Assembly (NCBI GenBank): GCA_045837725.1
Contig: JBEWZL010000209.1
Location: 248,001 to 312,000 of the forward strand
Origin: Vermamoeba vermiformis
Taxonomy: Eukaryota
Length of the DNA: 64,000 bases
Direction of reading: 5' to 3'
Numbering within the stretch: position 1 is the stretch's first letter; each line of letters opens with the position of its first letter. A model generated the notes under the pieces. The model was not told the origin of the DNA and searched no databases. It was given only the letters and a program-made list of their open reading frames with translations. Below are positions 1 to 64,000 of the stretch, in pieces. Made by a program: the position numbers and the translations under genes.

Positions 1-3000
1 TGCATGAGGAGACTCGAGCGAATAGCCCAATTCAAAGCCAAGCACTCCGAACTCACTCAACGTGGAGTCAACAATATCAATGGAGGCCTTGGCACTGGCC
101 AGTTGTTGAAGAGGGAACCAAGTCTTGCCTGTGTTTTGATCGTGCATGACAGCGTGACGATGAGAGAAGGGACCGCGTTGACTGTCTTGACCGGCAAGAC
201 GGACGTGATGGCCTTCTAACAACAGAGTCCCAAAGGCCAGTGCTTCGGCAGTAGCCCAATCAAGTCCCTTGCCAGTTTGGAACATTTGCTTCTTAGCTGC
301 GAGCAATCGACTGGACCCAAAAAATGATCGTCAGTATCAAGGTACATATGGCCGTATATGTTCATAGAAATCTTACGTCAAAATAGGATGAGGAGTGAAA
401 CCGTCAGGGAGGCTGGTGATGACCTCTCCGATGTACTTAAGGACATCTGTAGGGGCACCAGTACATATGTTCTGGATGCGAGCATCTGTCTTGGGGCCTA
501 AATTATACGAGTAAGCTATCTACTGCACATTGTTCAATCAATTCGAATTGTCAGATCCGATCCGATCAACGACCGACCGACGTACTCTTAAAGTCCTTCC
601 ATTTGGACTCCAACCAGTCGCTAGCTATAGGCTTATAGCTCTTGCTCGCTTCCATAGCTTGATTCAAAGTGGCATAGATCCGTTCCTTCATGCGAGAGAA
701 GGCGTCTTTGTTAGTGAGTCCTTCGTGGGCCAATCGTTCATAATAGTAGTCCAAAGTGGCCTTGTGTTGCGCAATGTTCTTATACATCAACGGTTGAGTG
801 AATCTAGGTTGGTCTTGTTCGTTATGGCCAAAGCGTCTATTCATTACATTAGATCATAAAAATTTCGAAGAGAAACAGAATTTTTGTAATATTTGAAATA
901 GCCGATTACGTACCTGTAGCAAATGAGATCAATAACTACAGATTTTTTAAACTACAAATTAAAGCCGTTAGCAAATTGGAGCGGACAGACGAATTTTCCA
1001 AATGCACCTTTTGTCTCCATTCAGTGGCCAACTGGCAAGCATGAACAACTGCTTCGGGGTCGTCTGAATTAACGTGGAATATAGGAGCGCCAATAGACTT
1101 GGCGATATCGGTGCAGTACTAAATAAAAAAATGAGGATCTGCTTTCGTCGATCGGAAAATTAATACGAACGAGAAATAGCTAAATTCTATATAATATATC
1201 ATGTTGCCAAATTAATATTCTTACTAAACCACCACGCGAGTTTTGAGGGTTGGTAGTGAACCCAACTTGATTGTTGATGACAATATGAACGGTACCTCCA
1301 GTAGTGTAGTCAGCAACACCAGCAAAGTTCAAAGTTTCCCAAACAACACCCTAGATAATGAAATAGATCAGCATTATCAAAATATTCGCGTTATCCTAGC
1401 TGTTGTACTAACTATTGGTTAGATGTTGAATTTTCGATCCGAAACTTTTTAATTAAAGGGGGAACTTACTTGACCAGCGAATGAAGCGTCTCCGTGCAAT
1501 TGAACAGCCATTGATTTGCTTCGCTCAACATCACCGCTGTAGTATTGTTTAGCACGTGTCTTGCCCTCAACAACTGGATCAACAGCCTCCAGGTGCGAAG
1601 GATTGGCCAAGAGCGACAAGTGCACTATCTTGCCACTGCGTGTCGGTCTGTCGTACGAGGTGCCCAAGTGATATTTGACGTCACCAGAGGCCCACTCATC
1701 GTAGATAACAGCACCTTTCTCGAACTCGTAGAACAGCACTTCGAGAGGCTTGCGCACGACGTTGCCGAGCACATTCAACCGACCTCTGTGGGCCATACCA
1801 ATCACAATTGATTCCACGCCAACGTTAGCAGCTGTATCGATCATAGCTTTCATGCCAGGGATCAACGCTTCGCAACCTTCCAGACCAAATCTAAAACAGG
1901 ATCGTTATTCACTTAGAAATTGGTAATTATTTAAATAAAATTGGAAATATCGTCAACATAGATAATAGTTGAAGTGTAGTACGCTAATAATCAGGCCTTA
2001 TTATTATTAGTATTTTTAGTATTTGTCTAACAAAAGCTTTTAAAAATAAATTTGACGCTGTTTGATACTAAAATTTACCTCCTCTGAATGGGAAACTTAA
2101 AGAACAAAAATTGTTCGAAGAAAGTGGCCCAAGCAAGCCGATCCAAAATGAGAAGTTTGTCATCCTGTATTGCAATACAAAGTGTTTATAATGGCTATTA
2201 TTAAAAAGAAATTACTACGTTGATATCGTAGCATAATTTAACTTCAATTAATGCAGATTTGATTGCGTGCTGCTTTCCGGTTCGAAAACGTTTTCTGAAT
2301 AAGATTTTTGTTGGAGTCAAGGTTATAACACGTCACCGGGCACAGTAATTTCCTATTAATTGGTGCCTAATACTCAGAATTTACAAATGAAGTTAAAGTA
2401 TTTTAGAGCACGACGATTATTGGATGTTGATAGCAGTCCAAAAAAATAGTAAGCATACAAAACACGATATAATCGATAATTGATAGTCTAAAAAATAGCC
2501 AAAAATTGTACAAAATTATATTGTAATTTTTCTGTGGCTTACCTTGCTAAAAGAATATTTTCTCTCGGTCTCGAATTGTTCTTTAATCCAATTGATCTCC
2601 TCGCGGTTTTGAATGTGCATAAATTCTACACCAATATTGTTGCAATAGGTTTGCTGGAGCTTTTCTATAATTTCGCGGAGGGTTCGCTTGGGCTTGTTAC
2701 CGGACAGGAATCCAGAGATGAGGCCTGCGTTCATCGGAATATAGAATTCGCGGTCCATATCAGCTTCAGTGAAGCCATAAGTCTCAGGTAATAATTCAGG
2801 GAATACGTGGGGCATGTACATTCCCAGAGGATCGGCTTTGGCTTGCGTGTGGCCACGTACTTGATAACTACGAACAAGCAGCATAATCTTCAAGCTGTCT
2901 TCGATAGTCTTTAAGTCTACCGTTCCTGATGCAGCTGTCTGAGCGAGGAAAGGCAAATCTTCGAGCGAGATCACCGGATTTGCAGAATAGTCTCCAGGTT

Positions 3001-3310
3001 GAATTCCATTCTCTATCCTTGAGAAAAATTCGGCCCATGAGATTGGAACATTTGCAGAATCTTGCTTCCATAAATCATACAGATGATCTAAATAATTGGC
3101 CGCAGAAAGCCAACTTTCCGAGATCTGCTTCAGTGTTGAGAGCGTTGGAGCAGCAGATTGCGTAGAATAATGGTCCAATGGAATACATATACCATGTTGA
3201 GCCGTCTTAGCTTGCTTTCGGTGGACGGCGAATAGGGCAGATGAGCGAGATGTGGTAAGGCCTTTCTTCGCTAATGCACAAGCCCTCCGCAATAACACTC
3301 GGGACAACAT
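1..3310 (-). CDS. OGDH: 2-oxoglutarate dehydrogenase E1 component, mitochondrial (multi-exon; 3' end runs off the window start)
   Basis: Exon translations contain [75 protein letters not shown] and [16 protein letters not shown]. The Arg-rich N-terminus [11 protein letters not shown] (ATG at 3310) looks like a mitochondrial presequence. Confidence 0.96.
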
Positions 3311-3761
3311 TAGTAGTGGATATGACTTCAAAATTTGTTTGCTCAATTTATAGGAAGGCGTTTTGTACAAAACTGAGTTCAATTAGAACAAAATCACGTG
3401 TATTTGCTTCTATTTAGAAGGTTCGGGAAATCACTGTTGCTGCTGTTGACAGTCAAAGAGGCCATGCTCTGCCAAGTAAATCGGGTAAATTGCTAATAAA
3501 CAATAATGCCTTAAGTCTGGTCGGTTTTCCGATCCCTTGTTGTCTACGACATCCGCACAAAATAATAACGTTCTTCTCAAATAGCCAATAAAAAAAACCA
3601 TGAATCGCCAATGATATGCGATCCACGATGTTAAATTACATTTACTATAATACATCAGATTTCTTGCAACAGTTGGTCGTACACTTAACGATTGTTCGAC
3701 GCTATAATACAGCATAGTTATTTCAGCGCTGCGTGTACTAACAAGACCAACTGCTCTCGAC

Positions 3762-6700
3762 TCAGCTCAAGCCCGATCTGTCGCCCACATTGGCGCGAAC
3801 AAGACAACGACGAGCAAATCTACGTTTAAGAATCATTAGTCCATAATGTTTTCTGCAAAAACTAATGTTGTTACGGTACCTCTTCCCAAAGCCTTTGCCA
3901 GGCAATGAGGGCTCCGTTGAAGGATGCGATCTTCCGTGCACCAAGTCCAACCTCTGTTTGTCAGGCGCTGCTATGCCCGCGAGCACAGATCTGTCCCGTG
4001 GTCCAAAAAATCGGATCATGTCAACCGAATGTCTTCGCACCAGCAGTATTGTATAGCACAACCGCTGATGCCCGTCCCAATCAGTAGCGTTGATAGTGTC
4101 GTAGTCGTGTAAAAGAATACGCTGCACTAAGTTTTTGTCAAAAGAAGCCCAACTCGGCCAAGTCTTCGGCAGTCGTGCGTTCAGATCCGCGATCTAAGCG
4201 AAAAAATATGAGGTCACAATTTTGTGCATAATAACAAATATCCTACGCTATAATCAGTAAGTATGTTATCAGCGTCGTGCCAGACTAATAGTCGAGGATC
4301 GTACAATGTCGGTCTAATTGAAAGCAATAATATTAGTTGAATTTCTTAGTATTTTTTTAACAACTAATGAATCTCGTACCCCGAAGTCGTGAAGGGCCTA
4401 ACACTACCAAAGGCAGGCAAAGTTGACCAATCGTTAAGCTGACCTGCAAAACGGTCCCTCAACTGATCAACCACGTCTGAAAATATCGATTCGTAGCGAC
4501 TTGCGTAGGAATTTAAACGACCGTAAATCTCGCGATCTTCAAAATAACGTGTCGTTTGGTGCATTCCTTCAAAGTTCAAGTAAAAAGTGATGATATCTTC
4601 GGCAGAAGTTGAGTCCCTAATAATGACAATAATTAGCTCCGCTCTTAAGTATTGAGATCAAACTCCTACTCTGCGAGACGCAGCATCACAACGCATTGCT
4701 CAATGTTCGGTCTGTTGTTTGGATCTTGCATACAGCAGGCAATAACTATTTGCTGAAGTTGTTTGTCGCTAATATTTTCTTTAATCAAGGCAATTCGCTC
4801 GTTCTCTTGAGATCGTACCCGAAAGCACATTCCCGTTATCATCTCGTACAAGACTGCACCAAACCTAGCGAGTACAAGAAATCATTAAATGACTCGCTCT
4901 CACATTCTTGATGCAAAACTTACGAATAGATATCAGCTTTTTCGTCGTACAATCTCTCTTCGAGGACTTCAGGAGCCATGTAGCAAAGTGTGCCTGCAAC
5001 GGTCTTTGCCAAGGATCCATCCCGCAATAATCTGGCCGTACCGAAGTCGGACAGCTTGGCCGTATTGTATTTGTCAAACTGTTGGACATTACGAGTAAGA
5101 TCGGGTGTTATTAACATCGTCAATAGACTTACCAAAACATTTGCAGGTGTGAGATCACGATGAATGATCTTCGGGTACCGAGAGTGCAAATACCTCAGGG
5201 CCCTGGCAATGTCGAGTGCGAAGTTAATGACATTCTTGCGTGAAAGTGGAACATTTTGATTAGGCAAAGGGTGAAGTCTATCCTGCAACGAGCCGTTCAG
5301 TAACTCCATAACCAGCTTCACCGGACTAACTTCGCCGAACTTATTGTCGTCAATCACACCATAAGACTCGACGATGTTTGGATGCTTCACCGACCTTATA
5401 TTATGAAGTGTTAGTACGATTGCTTTGCATCCAATATCAACACTTACAAAGCACGGTAAGCCTCTTGACGGAAGGCCTCAGTGTGGCAAGCCGACTTGAG
5501 AATTTTTACGGCTACATTTTTGTCGTTGAAAGTGCCTTTGTACACCGTTCCAAACGTTCCTTCGCCAATTTTTCGGTCGAAAAAGATCTTGACGTCATCG
5601 GACGGGATTATTTGCCCAGATAAAGGTTGCGCAGGATCAACAAGGAGCCGCTTGTTCATTATTGCATCCACGCGAGACTCGTGCCTCATAGACTCGGAGT
5701 CGTTGTTTAGGAGCATGTTGGTGATGCGCCTAAGTGAAGAGAATTGAGAGCAACGATCACTTAGAGTAACTTCAGACGGTCTAGTGTCAGAGGACGGGAA
5801 ATGGGTGGTCATCGTAGAAACTCCTTTCGTGCGGACAGAATTTCTTTTGAGGCTTAACATCACACTGACGTTCCATTCAACAGGCAAATACGCCGCCTTG
5901 TTTGCAGTCATAAGCTCGCAAAGTGGAAGGTCAGAAGAGCCGACTAACTCGTCGTCAGCAGCAATTTTGTGGTTCCATACTTCAATGTGCAATTGTGCGT
6001 CATCGTTTGGAACCTCGAGCACGGCTACCGAGTCAAAGTCTGGATAAATGTTCTTACGAGTTGTAGCTCCGTTCAGTGTCATTTTGACCTATGGTTCGAT
6101 GAGTTGCTATTCATTGAGCTTCGGATTAAATACGTATATTTACTTACATATGAGCCGTTGTTAAGTGCATTGCTAGCCTTTACTGAAAAGGAGCTGGATA
6201 TTAATACAAAAGATATCAAACTACAAATGCCTACCCGTTACGAACAGACTTCCAACACGACAGGAGTAGTATAATCTAAATGAACGGTAAATACTCCAAG
6301 GCTCATTCATTGATGCACTTACTTCAGTCCAATACTTTCAAATCGTTCCGTTGAGGATGACAGATTCTGCGAGCTTTCGCCTTAAAATTTGTTCTTTATC
6401 AGTAACCTTTCACCGAAAAACACTGATGTTGAAAACTGAACAACTCTGTTCAACGGTTGAAATCGATATTTAAATGTGCGATAATTACCAGGAATTAGTG
6501 GCTTGTAACCAATCTTCTTGTAAGAATTTCCTTCTTTAGTGCCATCCAGCTTGTCCACGACCGGTTTCTCTCGTCGCAACAATGGCAATACTAATTTCCA
6601 TTCAGTGTGAGATCTATTATTAACTTCAATGAACTCATCGAGTATCACATCCGTAGTGCCGATCAAATTATCGTTGGTCACTTTGTCGTAGTCCCAGACT

Positions 6701-9579: not shown

Positions 9580-11152
9580 CGTTGTTTTATGCAATACTCG
9601 GACCGTTGTTGTTCTTTACGAAACAAAAATAGAAACGCTAGCAATCCTGAAAGAGATTGCACAAGCTCCTCGATTAAATTTAATCTCCCAACGCTTGTTC
9701 TAATCGAAAAATAAATCGTATTTGCATTAGTCTGCGAGTATGAAGCTATCGTGTTAGGACATCTGATCTGAAGTAAACAAGAGAAGTGAATAAAGAGACG
9801 TTGTTTTCGTTTTGTATTTTTTGTTTTGTTTTGTTTTCGTTCTTTTGCTTTCCTTTTATTATCGCTACTAACGCATCTACAAGATCCGCTAATAAAAACA
9901 TAAAATTATCATTATAATTACAAAAATCGATCTTGCTCGCAATAACACCAGTGAAAGCAAAATCTAGCATTAATCATAACTTGGGCTTCAGATAGATGAA
10001 GTTAACGAGATTGAAGCACTCGACTAAGGACTCGAGCGTCAATCCCCAGATTCGTTCTGGTGCTGAATCCGCTTCATCCTCTTCAAGGGACAATACGAGA
10101 CTAGGACATACAGCCTTCGAGTTGATTCTCAATGGGACGAATTGTGGGTTCTTGAACATAACATTGCGAAGTCTGTTCACCGGAATCCAACGTGCTCTAT
10201 TGCAGATCTGCTGGTGACAAGGCGCGATCTGCAAAAAGACAAACGGGGAGATGACGAATGGTTCCCCGTCCTCTGGTTGCACGTATCTATGTGATAGTAG
10301 TATCGTTATTATCAGCACCAGTAACGCGTTGGATCCAGATTTAAATTATTAGTTCGAAAGCCGGAAATTTATTCAAGATTAATGACGGAATTTTAACGAA
10401 AGCTTATGTATTTTAGCATATTAATGGCAAATTAAGTCACAAAGTATGAAGTAATGATTACCTGTCGTCTAAGCGTCCGATAGCGCGAAAGACGGCTTCA
10501 TCCCCCAAGTCCAAGCCAATATCAGCTCGGCACTCATTGATTGATACGGAGATCATATCATCGGAAGGACACACGTCGGGTCTCAACCCACCAGGGAAGG
10601 CAACCTTCATAAAAGACGATCAGAAACGACATTCGGATTTGTGGGAATTATGTAATTTTTAATAAATGGCGCAGAAAATCCATTACAAATTAATTCTTTT
10701 GCGGGAATAAATTTGTCTATAATTATTAGGTGTTTTGCCATGCTTAATTCGATTGAAAAAGCGCCGATAAATTGCATTTGATCGTTACTTACTCCACAGC
10801 CCAATTTATCCGCACGAATATTCTCAGGTCTACGCACAATCAACACTTCTAATTGTCCTGAGTGTCGCATTGAGCGTAATTTATGATCAGCATCATTAAT
10901 ATAAGAGCCATTGGTGGGCGCCATGGAGATGTGCCCCGTCTGTTTTTTGGGAACGAAACGGAACACCATAGCCACAGCGCTTCTTAGATCATAATCGATC
11001 GTGTACGGCTTGTTTTGATTGAGCTGCGAAAGAAGGTTCATAAAGAAACAGTAATCTTCATTCGCGTTGTCAGTGCTTGGATCATAGACAGATGGATGGC
11101 TGTTTCCGTGCAATCTTCGCCTGGTGAGTATGCTTCTTCGACCTACGAGCAT
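9580..11152 (-). CDS. Nudix-fold protein of the CoA-pyrophosphatase (NUDT7/NUDT8/Pcd1) type with a degenerate Nudix box
   Basis: RSAVAMVF...LEVLIVRR...G|VAFPGG...IGLDL...IGRLDD...ISPFVFL...RIWGLT, the motif order of CoA-type Nudix proteins. The 3' exons (9970-9580) are uncertain. Confidence 0.7.
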
Positions 11153-11620
11153 GTTCGTCACTCTTACACTTGTTCCTGGGTAAACTTAAAACAAATATAT
11201 AAAATAAACAAAGGGCCTTTGTGTTCTTGTTCTGAGCTAAACAAGCGAAAAAAAACAAAGTCCGAAACGCGGACAAAAAAACCTGGCGGTCGGAAATTTC
11301 ATAGAAAACAGAATTTTGGACCAATCCTGTAGCAGAGATACAGAATTTTTTCTATGTTCTTAACGAGCGACATATGCCTACGTATGAACACCCTAACACC
11401 GCTTTCGTAGCTTGATCACGTTACGAACGGCTGGATTCGACGCATCTTCCTCGTACGTTTTACCTCAAGTTTTATTAGTACTGAGGTAATATGTTGTTAC
11501 AAGTGTCTCTACGGAGCATAGAGTTGATTGCACGAGAAAAATTTGTTCGTAGTTCGTTCAATTGTCGAAGAAATTCACCACTTAGTTCGTGTTCTTCTTT
11601 TGTTTGCTAGAGCAATGGAG

Positions 11621-12384
11621 TTAAGGTCTAAATAACTAACAACAGGGAATAGGAATACTAGGTCATATAGTCATAATATCTTCTGCGTAACTCGAGCAAA
11701 ATACAAAATTCAGACGAGCTACTAAATTTCAAAAGATACGCGATCGAGTAAATTTCAAAATGAAGCTCGATGAATTTCTAAAACACAGATATGACGGTAA
11801 ATAAGTATGATAAGGATACCTTTGCCAGTATTGGTCCATGCCGACTTGACTGTCTTGTTGAATAGCCTTCTCGCGAACCTCAGCAACGTTGGTCACTTCA
11901 ACTTCGTCGTTGCGAATCAATTTGGAACCAAAACGTTGACCCTTCTCGCCGACATCGTTCTTGTATAAGTAATAATGTTAATATTGCGAGCAAAAAAACA
12001 GGATAAAGTAATTAGCGGATTTGAAATTGTTTCCGTTACTTACAACATAATCAGGATCGGTGTCCCAGTCGTCGTCGTTGTTGGCCTAATTGCAAGCATT
12101 AGAACAAAAAAAGTAGGTCTTGAGACAAATACAGAAAAAATCTTTGACGCATCCAGCCGAATTTCGTTTACAATAGCTCCAAAAAATCAGAAATAATACC
12201 CTAATATTTTACTATAATTACGAGTAATTATTGGTAATATTAGAAAGCGAAATGGAGCATAAAGAATCTTCAACAGACAATAAGCTTACGTCACGCGTCC
12301 GTTTGACTTCTACACTATACGTACCAATTTATCAGGCATATCGTCTTTGCGAGTAATAGGGGTGAGGTTATTGTAGACAGACAT
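11621..12384 (-). CDS. 82-aa microprotein consisting of a cortactin/HS1-like N-terminal acidic (NTA) region only
   Basis: Exons 12384-12325, 12085-12044, 11959-11820 and 11627-11621 (all GT-AG, frame-consistent) give MSVYNNLTPITRKDDMPDKL-ANNDDDWDTDPDYV-NDVGEKGQRFGSKLIRNDEVEVTNVAEVREKAIQQDSQVGMDQYWQR-P*. Compare cortactin [23 protein letters not shown]. Confidence 0.8.
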
Positions 12385-12741
12385 GATTAGTCTTGTGTTT
12401 GTTATTTAGCTAATAATGAAAATAAGGCATTCCACCAATTTTACTGCTGAGTACGCAACGGCAGCCGTAGAAACTGTTTGCTATCCTCAGTTATTACTGC
12501 GCTCAATTTATTTGTCTCATATTAATATTAAGAGACCTCTGTGTTGATTGCGTTTGGAGCAGATACGAACCATCTCAGCCAGCCGATCGAGCGTGCGCCA
12601 AAAATAAAGGTAATATAAATATAATACGTGAAAATATTAATATACGAGGTAAATTACTAACTGTACATTTATATACAAGGGAATTGAGATCTAGCACAGC
12701 ATCTAATCTGCTTTGTATTGAGGGTAAGAAGCTCTTCAAGT

Positions 12742-12820
12742 ACTAAAACGCTATCTCGGCCATCGAACCATAATTATATAATTAATTTTAGTGGTTCGCG
12801 CGTCATTCAAGCGTTTTAGT
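12742..12820 (-). promoter_or_regulatory. SECIS element (type II-like) in the 3' UTR of the Rdx-family selenoprotein gene
   Basis: Minus strand reads ACUAAAACGC-uuga-AUGAC-gcgcgaacca-cuAAAau(uaauua-ua-uaauua)-ugguucgauggc-cGAga-ua-GCGUUUUAGU. It has a perfect 10-bp helix I, the AUGA/GA core, helix II and an apical AAA with an AU-rich mini-stem, about 45 nt after the stop codon. Confidence 0.88.
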
Positions 12821-12864
12821 TTTGACGATCAACTTGTCTCGAGCAGATTCGTTCTATAATCGAC

Positions 12865-13440
12865 TTATTTTTTCTTCTTAAGCTTATATCCTAATTTTAA
12901 CATGGCCACTTCGACATCTCTAGGACTCGGATATCGATATTTCGTCAGTTTAGACCAGATGACGTTCGATCCGCTCGTGATCTCAAAGGCGCCCTTAGTA
13001 GGATTCGTGTCTTCTTTCTCGATGGTGACTCCAGGGAAATCGACTTGAATACTAGCTTTCATTAAGAGGCTTTGAGACCAGGCCCCGCCTCAGCTGGATC
13101 CGCACGAGGTACTAATGAATAATTCTTGTTAATGGATTATTTTATAATAATAAGAGGAAAATCAGTAATAATAATACTGATAATGAAGTATTGGAGCTAA
13201 TATATCTTTATCAAGCTCAGTGACAATTTTAGAATAATTAATGAAAATTTAAAACAATCAGATCTTCGTCTCTGTAATAATTAAGAGTTATTTTATCATG
13301 AATACTACTTACTTATAGCTGATTTTAATAGGAGGTAATTGTTTGTTGATTTCGGCCGGATCTTCTTGAACTCCGGAGTTTGCATTGAGCGTCTTTGGCG
13401 CATCTGGCTCTACTTGAGCCTCTGCCGTATTCTCACTCAT
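12865..13440 (-). CDS. Rdx-family (SelW/SelT/SelH-like) selenoprotein, about 124 aa, with Sec encoded by TGA at 13092-13090
   Basis: Exon 1 13440-13313 plus exon 2 13111-12865 give ...PIKISYNTSCGSS-U-GGAWSQSLLMKASIQVDFPGVTI...TKGAFEITSGSNVIWSKLTKYRYPSP... The GxFEI...IWSK...RxP signature is typical of the Rdx family. The TGA is in frame with the downstream ORF 13062-12865, and a SECIS follows. Confidence 0.88.
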
Positions 13441-61456: not shown

Positions 61457-64000
61457 TTATTTTTTGTTTTCCCGAAGCTTGGTCAAATCGGCGCTAGGAA
61501 TTTTGGTGATCAAATCATCGATGAACTCTGGCGGTAGCTTGTCCCTCTTAAGCTTCTTCATGATAGGTCTAATGGCCCCAGAGCCTTTACTAGCCCCCAG
61601 CTTGAGGTACGCTTGTCGTTCTTTCATCACTTGACATGTCATCCGGTATTTTGTTGGATCTTCAATTGACTCCTGTAACTTCACATTAGCGACTTCTGCA
61701 CTGGTTATTGTAGCTCCTTTCGATAAGAGGTATTCAACGACTTGATCATTGGAGTAGAACGATGTTTGTGCCATTAAAAGCAACGAGTTTTGTTTGTTGT
61801 CGGTAAAATTGACGTCAAAGCCAAGTGTCTCGATCAAAAGCGTTGTTAACTGAAGATCGACGGTGAATAGCGACAGTTCTCTGCTCAAATCTTTGTCGCT
61901 GTTGTTGTTAAAGTACTCGTCAATCTCGCTTTTGATGAATGCGAAGTTCTCTGGTGTTGCGTACTGCTTACAAACATCAATGATGTTATATTTTGTACTA
62001 GAAGTGTCATTTGAAGTGTCGTTAGATTCACTGCCATTCTTAGAACCTACAAACTACATTAGCGGAATGGAATTTCTCGAACATTAAATCGTACTTGGGA
62101 ATGCTGTTGCCAATTGTGCAGGAGAAAACTGGAGTAAGTAGTGCATGAAGGATTGATCCGCTTTGTTTTTGTGGCGAATGTTGACTTTGCCGCTTGCAAG
62201 AAGTGTCAGAATTATTTGACACGTGTAATCGTCGCACCATGACGACGGATCCAAGAGCATCAGTAAAGGTGTCATATGCATCATTGACTCGTAGGCATTG
62301 ACATCTGCACCGCATTCAATCATTGTTTTGATCTCCATTTCTTCATCGGAGTTGAGCACCGCACGATGAAGTGGCGTTTGACCGACCTTGTTCTGAGCAT
62401 TGATGTCAATATGCCTTGACAGGTATCGGATCAAATCAAGTATATTTTCCAGCACAACGCCGTCATTATTAATGTCGCCTCTATTTGGGAACAGTGCGTG
62501 CAATAGCGTGTTGCCGGCATTGTCGATAATATCGAGTCTCGCACCGTGCGACACGAGCACTTGAACAAGTTCCACTGGCGCACCACATCGAACAGCTGTG
62601 TTCATGGGATAGGTTAATCGACCCTTTGCATCGTAGTCACGATTGTTGACATCTGCGCCATGCAGCAGTAGTGAGAACATGGCTTGTGATGCGAATTCTC
62701 GGTCTGAAAGTGACAAACATAAGCAGAGTGGATTGACGGTGTTTCCAGCTATATTTGGATCGGCGCCATGTTCTAAAAGCGTATCAACAGATGAAATACT
62801 TTGTGCGAGGATTGCTGAAATTAACGGGGTATTGTCGTTCTTGTCGGGCTTGTTAATATCAATCTGCAAACCTTCTAAGATGTCCTCGAAATCTCCTCCC
62901 AGTTCTATTAGGTACGTTAATACTGATTGGCCTTTTTCGTTGTAAACTTCGTCGAGTGGGATCTTCACTTCTTCAATAAATTGTTGGAGCTGTTTTACTT
63001 CCATTGCTAAGAGAAAGCGAAATAAAAACTTCGTGGCGAAATCTTTTGGTATGATATCTTTGATGGATTGGTAGCCTTTCATGAAGACCGGAAATAATAA
63101 ACCAATATAATCGGATTCGAATGAAATCTCCACCCCACGTTGGACTAATGCTAGCCAAACAGGATAATTCTCTATAGCATAACTCGCAAAATTATATTCT
63201 CCTTCTTTGGCTGGCCTCAGTAATCTCTCTTCTCCAAAAATGTCGACCAGATCTTCGTACGACGGCGCTTTTTGAACTATTCTTTTGATGTCAACGCTAA
63301 ATAATTGATCCAACTCTTCTTTCGGAAATTGCATTAGAACTTCTTTAACGGAGTTGAAGTCGAATTCTCCTTTGACCAAAGTACTACATAAATTCTGCGG
63401 CGTTGAGTTTTGTGGATTTGACACCAAACCGAACTTCTCTAATAAATCCAGAATGTTGTTTGAGGCTTTATGAGTCCATTTCAAGTTCCACGACCAGGTG
63501 TACACAAGCGTTGGAAACACAAACTGACGGGATCTTTCTGAAAAAGACTCTTCGTATTCTGCGGTGATGTAACCGTGCTTTTCTAAGAATCGTTGAGGTA
63601 CTCCCATGTCTCTATAACTATAAAGCTCCTTAATTGGCGTGTCCACGTGAGTTGAAATAATGTGAGTACGAAGTTCCTTGGAGATCGAAGATCAGGTAAT
63701 GTTGATGAGGAAATCTGCAATTAACTTGAACTCCGAGGGCTTTGCCATACTCCTCGAGCTTTTTCCAGTCTTCTTCGGCCTCTTCCTTCTTGGCATATGA
63801 AGAGGTCTGATTTACGTATAAAGTCTTTAATAACGGAAACATTGTCGTGGTCCAACTGAGGCTTTCAACGTTCTTAGGCAATTTATCGATCACTATTTCG
63901 AGTTCTCTAACTTTATCCGAGATATATTCTGGATTATTGAGGTCGACACCGGTTGGTAGATTTCCACGGAGCAAGGTCAGCTGTTTTACGTTCGGGAATA
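61457..64000 (-). CDS. Ankyrin-repeat protein (5' end beyond the window)
   Basis: DINKPDKNDNTPLISAI...LLEHGADPN, LLLHGADVN, GNTLLHA, INAQNKVGQTPLHRAV, GADVNA..MTPLL. The three track ORFs join via two short introns. Confidence 0.85.

Follow-up and report, generated by a model that had tools for sequence, protein, structure and literature searches.

A gene for a stand-alone counterpart of the cortactin N-terminal acidic region in Vermamoeba vermiformis

The closest described counterparts of the protein analyzed here are cortactin (CTTN) and HS1 (HCLS1), in which an N-terminal acidic region (NtA) is accompanied by tandem 37-residue F-actin-binding repeats (Pfam PF02218, HS1_rep), helical and proline-rich regions, and a C-terminal SH3 domain. 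We analyzed a 64,000-nucleotide stretch of Vermamoeba vermiformis DNA (GenBank assembly GCA_045837725.1, contig JBEWZL010000209.1, positions 248,001 to 312,000), hereafter the window, whose own numbering is used throughout. On its minus strand the window carries a spliced gene for an 88-residue microprotein whose homology spans the entire cortactin NtA and no other part of cortactin. The module, known only from the head of a multidomain protein, here has a natural stand-alone form that is widespread.

The contacts made by the cortactin NtA are described in two structural papers from 2023-2024 (PMC10613254 and PMC11102864), passages of which differ on what its binding to Arp3 does without F-actin tethering: displacement versus stabilization of the active state. 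According to passages of PMC10613254, ten residues of the cortactin fragment Cort1-76 (residues 20-29) are the only ones visualized on inactive Arp2/3. Between Arp3 subdomains 3 and 4, a hydrophobic pocket receives their tryptophan, and D20, D21, E23, D25, and D27 lie opposite a ring of basic residues. The same passages state that the acidic domains of Arpin and of WASP-family activators also occupy this Arp3 site, with the polarity of cortactin inverted. At the branch junction, as described in parts of PMC11102864, cortactin residues 24-54 meander over Arp3, and a hydrophobic cleft of activated Arp3 takes up residues 55-76 as an amphipathic helix. AlphaFold confidence is given there as low for the cortactin N-terminus, with the exception of the 55-76 helix.

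The V. vermiformis gene has three introns, all GT..AG (239, 84, and 213 nt). Transcript evidence was gathered over 10000-12700 from raw RNA-seq runs X20-X22, which have the same species label and reads 95-99% alike, and from contigs of run X1 (99+% alike). The 5' untranslated leader covers at least 12385..12401, because the spliced X1 contig begins at 12401, and no ATG occurs above 12384 in that contig. Exon 1 (12325..12384) encodes 20 residues from the ATG and begins MSVY, an N-terminus common to the family described below; the X1 contig gives its joint as 12324/12084. Intron 1 (12086..12324; GTACGT..AATTAG) is supported by this contig and its splice sites. Exon 2 (12044..12085) encodes the acidic tryptophan motif ANNDDDWDTDPDYV, which by alignment to 8tah_H and 8p94_I is the counterpart of the Arp3-contacting cortactin residues 20-29. 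It is followed by intron 2 (11960..12043; GTAAGT..TACAAG), with its joint at 12044/11959 in the X1 contig. Exon 3 (11820..11959; 46 codons and 2 nt) begins with the conserved NDVGEKGQRFGSK, aligns to cortactin 30-67 in the PDB comparison, and holds a predicted amphipathic helix. Intron 3 (11607..11819; GTATCC..CTCTAG) is supported by RNA reads, the X1 contig, and splice sites. The coding part of exon 4 (11582..11606) finishes a Ser codon and adds KQKKNTN and a TAA stop (11584-11582), as fixed by the RNA joint and by the same tail in an orthologue. The 3' untranslated region (11460..11581, its end approximate) was placed by RNA depth and includes the hexamer AATAAA at 11476-11471, read from the sequence. 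Joined by coordinates, the coding sequence has 267 nt and no internal stop, and specifies 88 residues plus the stop, with a pI of 4.5 and 18 acidic and 12 basic residues.

The joint 11606/11820 was recovered in all three RNA runs (5, 6, and 9 reads), and a single 314-nt X1 contig holds all three joints (11820/11606, 12324/12084, and 12044/11959). A spliced contig of this kind is hard to explain unless X1 is RNA. RNA depth in the exon 3 bin is 2.8-13, and an unspliced X1 contig is also present over 11665-11834. A sequence-only reading of the window had given the first three exons exactly (12384-12325, 12085-12044, and 11959-11820, with their translations). Its fourth exon, of 7 nt and ending at 11621, was wrong: RNA joins 11820 to 11606, and the proposed exon falls within intron 3. 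The coding sequence consequently runs 39 bases past the end given in that reading, and the product has 88 residues rather than 82. The locus is a real, spliced gene bearing a polyadenylation signal, and reads in all three RNA runs dispel the concern that it might not be expressed.

Homology to cortactin was assessed against 177,635 distinct PDB sequences. The independently predicted orthologue P0004 (89 residues, identical to the window protein in 83 of 89 columns, with the same KQKKNTN tail) matched cortactin at E values of 1.7e-9 and 1.6e-8, and the next match had an E value of 0.39. With a profile of four family members (alignment A1), the cortactin matches had E values of 1.2e-15 and 2.4e-14 over residues 7-76, and the next was 0.31. 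Exon 3 alone, without the acidic motif, matched only cortactin in the PDB (8tah_H, E 0.085; 8p94_I, E 0.41). Searched against 1.84 billion representatives, the 46 residues of exon 3 had two matches at E<=0.001, both close relatives; cortactin was not reached among the representatives because so short a query is insufficient. By these alignments, the resemblance to cortactin exceeds chance. The PDB and profile matches bear out the proposal, made from the sequence, of a stand-alone small protein consisting of the cortactin NtA only, and we regard it as very nearly certain that the gene is real and its product a true NtA homologue.

The two parts of the NtA that contact Arp3 in cortactin both have apparent counterparts in the microprotein. 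The exon 2 translation aligns to cortactin residues 18-29, placing a putative DDW-type motif within it. The segment DDWDTDPDYV is identical to the cortactin decapeptide (passages of PMC10613254) at 8 of 10 positions, including the tryptophan and all five acidic positions. An AlphaFold2 model, computed from a 25-row family alignment with P0004 as first row, has a mean pLDDT (predicted local distance difference test) of 67.5. It shows no regular structure up to residue 59, apart from one short turn, and a helix at residues 60-87 with a block pLDDT of 90-93. HMMER alignments set this predicted helix against the cortactin helix and reach cortactin residues 67-76, so the microprotein would possess the amphipathic helix as modeled. 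Alignments A1 and A2 both place in the microprotein the family core, which extends from the acidic tryptophan motif through a G-S-K block. Across the 25 aligned sequences, which include animal cortactin, T30, D31, N36, E40, R44, and G46 are invariant, and D26, D27, W28, V35, and D37 are conserved in at least 90%. The Dictyostelium discoideum member (P0025, DDB_G0288379) has phenylalanine in place of the tryptophan that enters the Arp3 pocket; all other aligned members and cortactin have tryptophan, as does the D. purpureum protein.

Likeness to the cortactin and HS1 NtA (PDB 8TAH and 8P94) thus covers residues ~7-76, the decapeptide, the helix site, and the N-terminal position of the module, but the microprotein is complete at 88 residues and lacks the repeats, the helical or proline-rich region, and the SH3 domain. 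It ends at an RNA-supported stop with no C-terminal SH3 domain, and none of the tandem PF02218 repeats are present. No Pfam family was found in P0004 at E<=10, including the SH3, WH2, and Arpin families. HS1-repeat-like motifs numbered zero across all six reading frames of the 64-kb window and six in the positive control, a cortactin locus recovered from metagenomes. That no repeats or SH3 domain follow had been noted from the sequence, and the Pfam null result, the motif scan, and the RNA-supported stop all agree with it. The microprotein is not a cortactin, because the HS1 repeats and SH3 that define one were tested for and are absent. It also differs at its start, which is MS-type rather than the MWK-type of animals and chytrids.

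Two other groups of Arp2/3 regulators invite comparison. Arpin, an inhibitor, is likewise small and places an acidic tryptophan motif on the same Arp3 site (passages of PMC10613254). Its motif, however, is C-terminal and of opposite polarity according to the same source, whereas that of the microprotein is N-terminal, and the two have no sequence relationship. The VCA regions of WASP/SCAR proteins (class I nucleation-promoting factors) also target Arp3 with an acidic tryptophan motif. Unlike these, the microprotein has no WH2 or central helix and its polarity is inverted, and by analogy with Cort1-76 it would be expected to be inactive alone.

Relatives were sought with a profile search confined to proteins of 48-167 residues. 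It returned 226 relatives at E<=1e-3 among 1293 candidates, P0004 scoring 128 bits; 120 of the 226 matches were listed. Among the matches are amoebozoan "hypothetical proteins" of 96-100 residues from six named species: D. discoideum (DDB_G0288379), D. purpureum (DICPUDRAFT_93002), Cavenderia fasciculata (DFA_00909), Heterostelium album (PPL_02355), Acytostelium subglobosum (SAMD00019534_006740), and Planoprotostelium fungivorum (PROFUN_02085). Chytrid members of 83-131 residues occur in Geranomyces variabilis, Entophlyctis helioformis, Fimicolochytrium jonesii, and Chytriomyces hyalinus. Transcriptome open reading frames (ORFs) labeled Palpitomonas bilix, Tiarina fusus, and Chloropicon mariensis also match, although such labels can reflect contaminants. 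Further matches include many metagenome ORFs, N-terminal fragments of animal cortactin and HS1, and a JGI record (P0080) automatically named "cortactin".

The matches divide by their N-termini. Among the 120 listed, 50 have an MW-type start as in animal cortactin, 38 have the MS-type start of the window protein (lengths 75-122 residues), and 32 begin in other ways. An HS1-repeat-like motif occurs in 19 of the 120 listed proteins, 14 of them MW-type and none MS-type. A KK-x-LYGG-type tail is found in 22 of the 38 MS-type proteins among the listed matches, and all six named amoebozoan members carry the MS-type N-terminus. The LYGG-type tail is kept in distant members such as the metagenome protein P0007 and the D. 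discoideum protein, which shows them to be complete proteins and not first exons read into introns. None of the 25 aligned family members matches PF02218 at E<=10.

Genomic context supports the short form as well. A metagenome scan with 333 pattern matches yielded two loci, L001 and L002. L002 has three exons encoding 81 residues, a stop at 5379, and a convergent gene for a 435-residue Cupin_8/JmjC protein 186 bp later; it is independent genomic proof of the short form. L001, the positive control mentioned above (4937-5780, plus strand), is a canonical cortactin with an MWK-type start; its exon 1 holds the acidic tryptophan motif, and the exons after it encode HS1 repeats. Among proteins of 157-2000 residues, P0004 retrieved none of 17 candidates at E<=0.01. 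This search was weak because P0004 and cortactin have no exact 5-residue words in common, and the profile was applied only to proteins of 48-167 residues. An Atlas look-up with P0007, useful as a lead only, gave as nearest cluster an 84-residue hypothetical protein commonest in Chytridiomycota (0.93), with an HS1 cluster at 0.90. One further metagenome ORF (P0035, 122 residues) contains an unrelated 40-residue insert between D-Y-V and N-D-V, the position of intron 2 in the window gene, which points to intron retention in a relative, with the intron position conserved.

The microprotein belongs, as a divergent member, to an unnamed family of NtA-only proteins, ~90-100 residues long, that occurs in Amoebozoa, in chytrid fungi, and in certain other protists. 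It is complete at 88 residues, belongs to the same size class as the amoebozoan and chytrid hypothetical proteins, and resembles them in core motif and helix. Its MS-type N-terminus is that of the amoebozoan members, and a GEKGQR core variant is common to it and the Planoprotostelium protein. It differs from the family in lacking the LYGG-type tail and in evolving fast; the chytrid members, in turn, have the start of animal cortactin and differ in their tails. A 49-row family tree is unresolved at depth and does not place the window protein; only the animal and chytrid clades, which are starred, and, less strongly, a dictyostelid group are distinct.

How such a protein might act on Arp2/3 can be considered from what is reported for isolated NtA fragments. 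In passages of PMC10613254, Cort1-76 is described as without F-actin binding, without recruitment of Arp2/3 to filaments, and without promotion, in solution, of the short-pitch state. The fragment is inactive alone, and its synergy is weak with monomeric and strong with dimeric N-WASP constructs. Cort18-76 is reported in the same passages to be much weaker, so residues 1-17 of cortactin matter for synergy. Passages of PMC11102864 state that the NtA alone partly protects from debranching, to a lesser degree than full-length cortactin.

We propose that the disordered acidic tryptophan motif of exon 2 would insert into the basic pocket of Arp3 subdomains 3 and 4, as cortactin residues 20-29 do, and that the C-terminal amphipathic helix would dock on activated Arp3 in its hydrophobic cleft, in the manner of cortactin 55-76. 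Lacking F-actin-binding repeats and an SH3 domain, the microprotein could neither bridge to the daughter filament nor be recruited by SH3 partners. Given Arp3 binding like that of the cortactin NtA, its behavior should match that of the NtA fragments assayed in isolation: inactive alone, synergistic with WASP/SCAR-type activators, and modestly protective at branch junctions. Considered as a whole, the best explanation is that it is probably an NtA-only, Arp3-binding co-activator or branch-junction stabilizer without a daughter-filament tether. Of the parts of this reading, binding to Arp3 is quite likely on the conserved motif and helix. The sign of the effect is a closer matter: by analogy with Cort1-76 the microprotein could be a net positive co-activator or stabilizer rather than an inhibitor, a call that we place just short of even.

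A number of observations weigh against the co-activator reading. The N-terminus of the microprotein differs from the synergy-relevant residues 1-17 of cortactin (as delimited in passages of PMC10613254). Inhibition at high dose would be possible by analogy, as polymerization is reported in the same source to decay at high Cort1-76 with monomeric WCA. The phenylalanine of the D. discoideum member means that the tryptophan pocket interaction may not be universal. The window protein and P0004 sit on a long branch (1.53 changes per column), which could reflect relaxed constraint, and they end in KQKKNTN without the LYGG-type tail, which is atypical for the family. Expression is low, with a depth of 1-13 versus 20-160 for the downstream gene. 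Exons 1 and 2 are barely covered by the raw reads, which come from a relative 95-99% alike, and their joints rest on one contig of X1, a run that is only guessed to be RNA.

Among the alternatives, the one that survives best is that the microprotein is a competitive inhibitor or buffer, its free acidic tryptophan motif holding the Arp3 site of the activators and, for want of an F-actin tether, lowering nucleation as Arpin does. The sequence-only reading had put forward competitive inhibition. The sharing of one Arp3 site by the cortactin motif, activator acidic domains, and Arpin, the decay of polymerization at high Cort1-76 with monomeric WCA (both from passages of PMC10613254), and the lack of any F-actin-binding repeat are all in keeping with it. 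However, Cort1-76 raises polymerization with both monomeric and dimeric activators in that source, the NtA alone protects branches (passages of PMC11102864), and the helix, which prefers activated Arp3, is conserved and confidently predicted. In addition, a part of PMC3762189 describes the isolated NtA as without inhibition even at high micromolar concentrations. Since Cort1-76 synergizes with activators and the NtA alone gives partial branch protection, inhibition would appear the less likely mode by analogy, and we consider it rather unlikely.

A second alternative accepts the resemblance to cortactin as real and assigns the motif and helix to a different protein with a basic pocket, not to Arp2/3. 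The D. discoideum substitution could be understood in this way, as could features that the family conserves and cortactin lacks, namely the MS-type N-terminus and the LYGG-type tail. Yet the most conserved block of the family across the 25 sequences is the Arp3-contacting decapeptide and the residues after it, and Arp3 is nearly universal in eukaryotes (as stated in a part of PMC3748353). A partner other than Arp2/3 is therefore improbable.

It might also be asked whether the gene is what decay or truncation has left of a full-length cortactin gene, still transcribed but functionless, as the long branch, the loss of the family C-terminal tail, and the low expression would allow. A relative with 6 differing columns out of 89 nevertheless keeps the 88/89-residue architecture and an identical tail, and all six differences in P0004 are conservative or outside the core. 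The sole listed RNA difference in exon 3, at 11876, falls at a third codon position and is synonymous by reading. Moreover, short forms of similar length are the rule in the family, and there are no traces of repeats in 64 kb, making a remnant very improbable.

RNA depth 3' of the stop is 2-4 in 11547-11637, ~1 in 11456-11546, and zero in 11274-11455, so the transcript does not run into further exons. The next gene has its own ATG at 11152; the gap of about 470 bp given in the sequence-only reading was correct from the end then assumed (469 bp), and the true stop leaves 430 bp. An incomplete gene model, in which the protein would continue into downstream exons with repeats or SH3, could draw on the weakness of the single-sequence search of longer proteins (0 of 17 candidates) but is extremely improbable given the in-frame stop in exon 4, the AATAAA ~105 nt beyond it, zero RNA depth over the next 180 bases, a downstream gene with its own start and roughly tenfold higher RNA depth, and a window free of HS1-like motifs.

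The family bears on the origin of cortactin. Passages of PMC3748353 date cortactin to holozoans, a part of PMC4824007 gives it as "found since Holozoa", and a part of PMC2824662 dates it to the ancestor of choanoflagellates and animals. In the literature that we searched on cortactin and on chytrid and amoebozoan actin (supplements and subscription-only papers lay outside the search), we found no description of NtA-only proteins, and likewise no mention of DDB_G0288379. The sole hint is one table row of PMC1550239 (2006), which records a Blastocladiella emersonii expressed sequence tag, BeG30N15C05, with the best hit "cortactin" (score 97) in an animals-only class.

If the module is conserved as a stand-alone form in Amoebozoa and chytrids, its origin would move back before those lineages split from animals. 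Tentatively, and with the odds somewhat against it, we suggest that the ~90-residue NtA-only protein is ancestral: an Arp3-binding microprotein predating the Amoebozoa/opisthokont split that tuned branch junctions without contacting F-actin, and from which cortactin emerged in the holozoan stem through the gain of actin-binding repeats and an SH3 domain. That the microprotein represents the ancestral building block of cortactin had been suggested from the sequence. Its distribution in Amoebozoa and Chytridiomycota is compatible with this idea, which is plausible but unproven, given a search limited to proteins of 48-167 residues. The Y-G-G in which many short forms end lines up with the start of the first cortactin repeat. 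A 99-residue transcript ORF labeled Palpitomonas (P0069), a label that may stem from contamination, carries a single HS1-repeat-like G-Y-G-G-x-F-G motif after the NtA core and has no match to PF02218 at E<=10; it could be an intermediate between the short forms and cortactin. The Y-G-G alignment and this ORF hint that the repeats may have grown from the tail of the microprotein itself.

If the proposal holds, an unstudied regulator would be added to the Arp2/3 toolkit of Dictyostelium and chytrids. Dictyostelium is a main model for actin-driven motility, and chytrid zoospores crawl with actin pseudopods. The microprotein would in effect be a natural Cort1-76, and would offer a clean genetic test of NtA-Arp3 binding without F-actin tethering.

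The surroundings of the gene are compact, with closely spaced genes, short GT..AG introns, and a G+C content of ~40% in the window, all of which suit a protist. Upstream, an ORF at 12865-13110 (minus strand) belongs to the Rdx family (SelW/SelT/SelH-like; Pfam PF10262, E 8.7e-6), and immediately before its frame stands an in-frame TGA, a few codons past a Cys. It could be named a candidate selenoprotein with unusual Cys-to-TGA spacing, an idea that is unsupported. Rfam gave no match in the window at the gathering score and none at E<=1 in 11100-13000; no selenocysteine insertion sequence (SECIS) was found there. The downstream gene (10000-11199, minus strand) has at least three exons, with joints at 10604/10794 and 10286/10462, and its RNA coverage is 10-50 times that of the microprotein gene. 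No Pfam match was found for its first exon, and its Atlas neighbors are weak and RNase H-like (0.77). In the strain that supplied the RNA, reads ending at 11174 run on for ~48 letters without colinearity to the window. Elsewhere in the window, all on the minus strand, 4920-6088 encodes a C2 domain and, after it, a protein kinase domain in a PKC-like arrangement, 62084-63691 is an ankyrin-repeat ORF of 535 residues, and 2516-3382 encodes the N-terminus of 2-oxoglutarate dehydrogenase.

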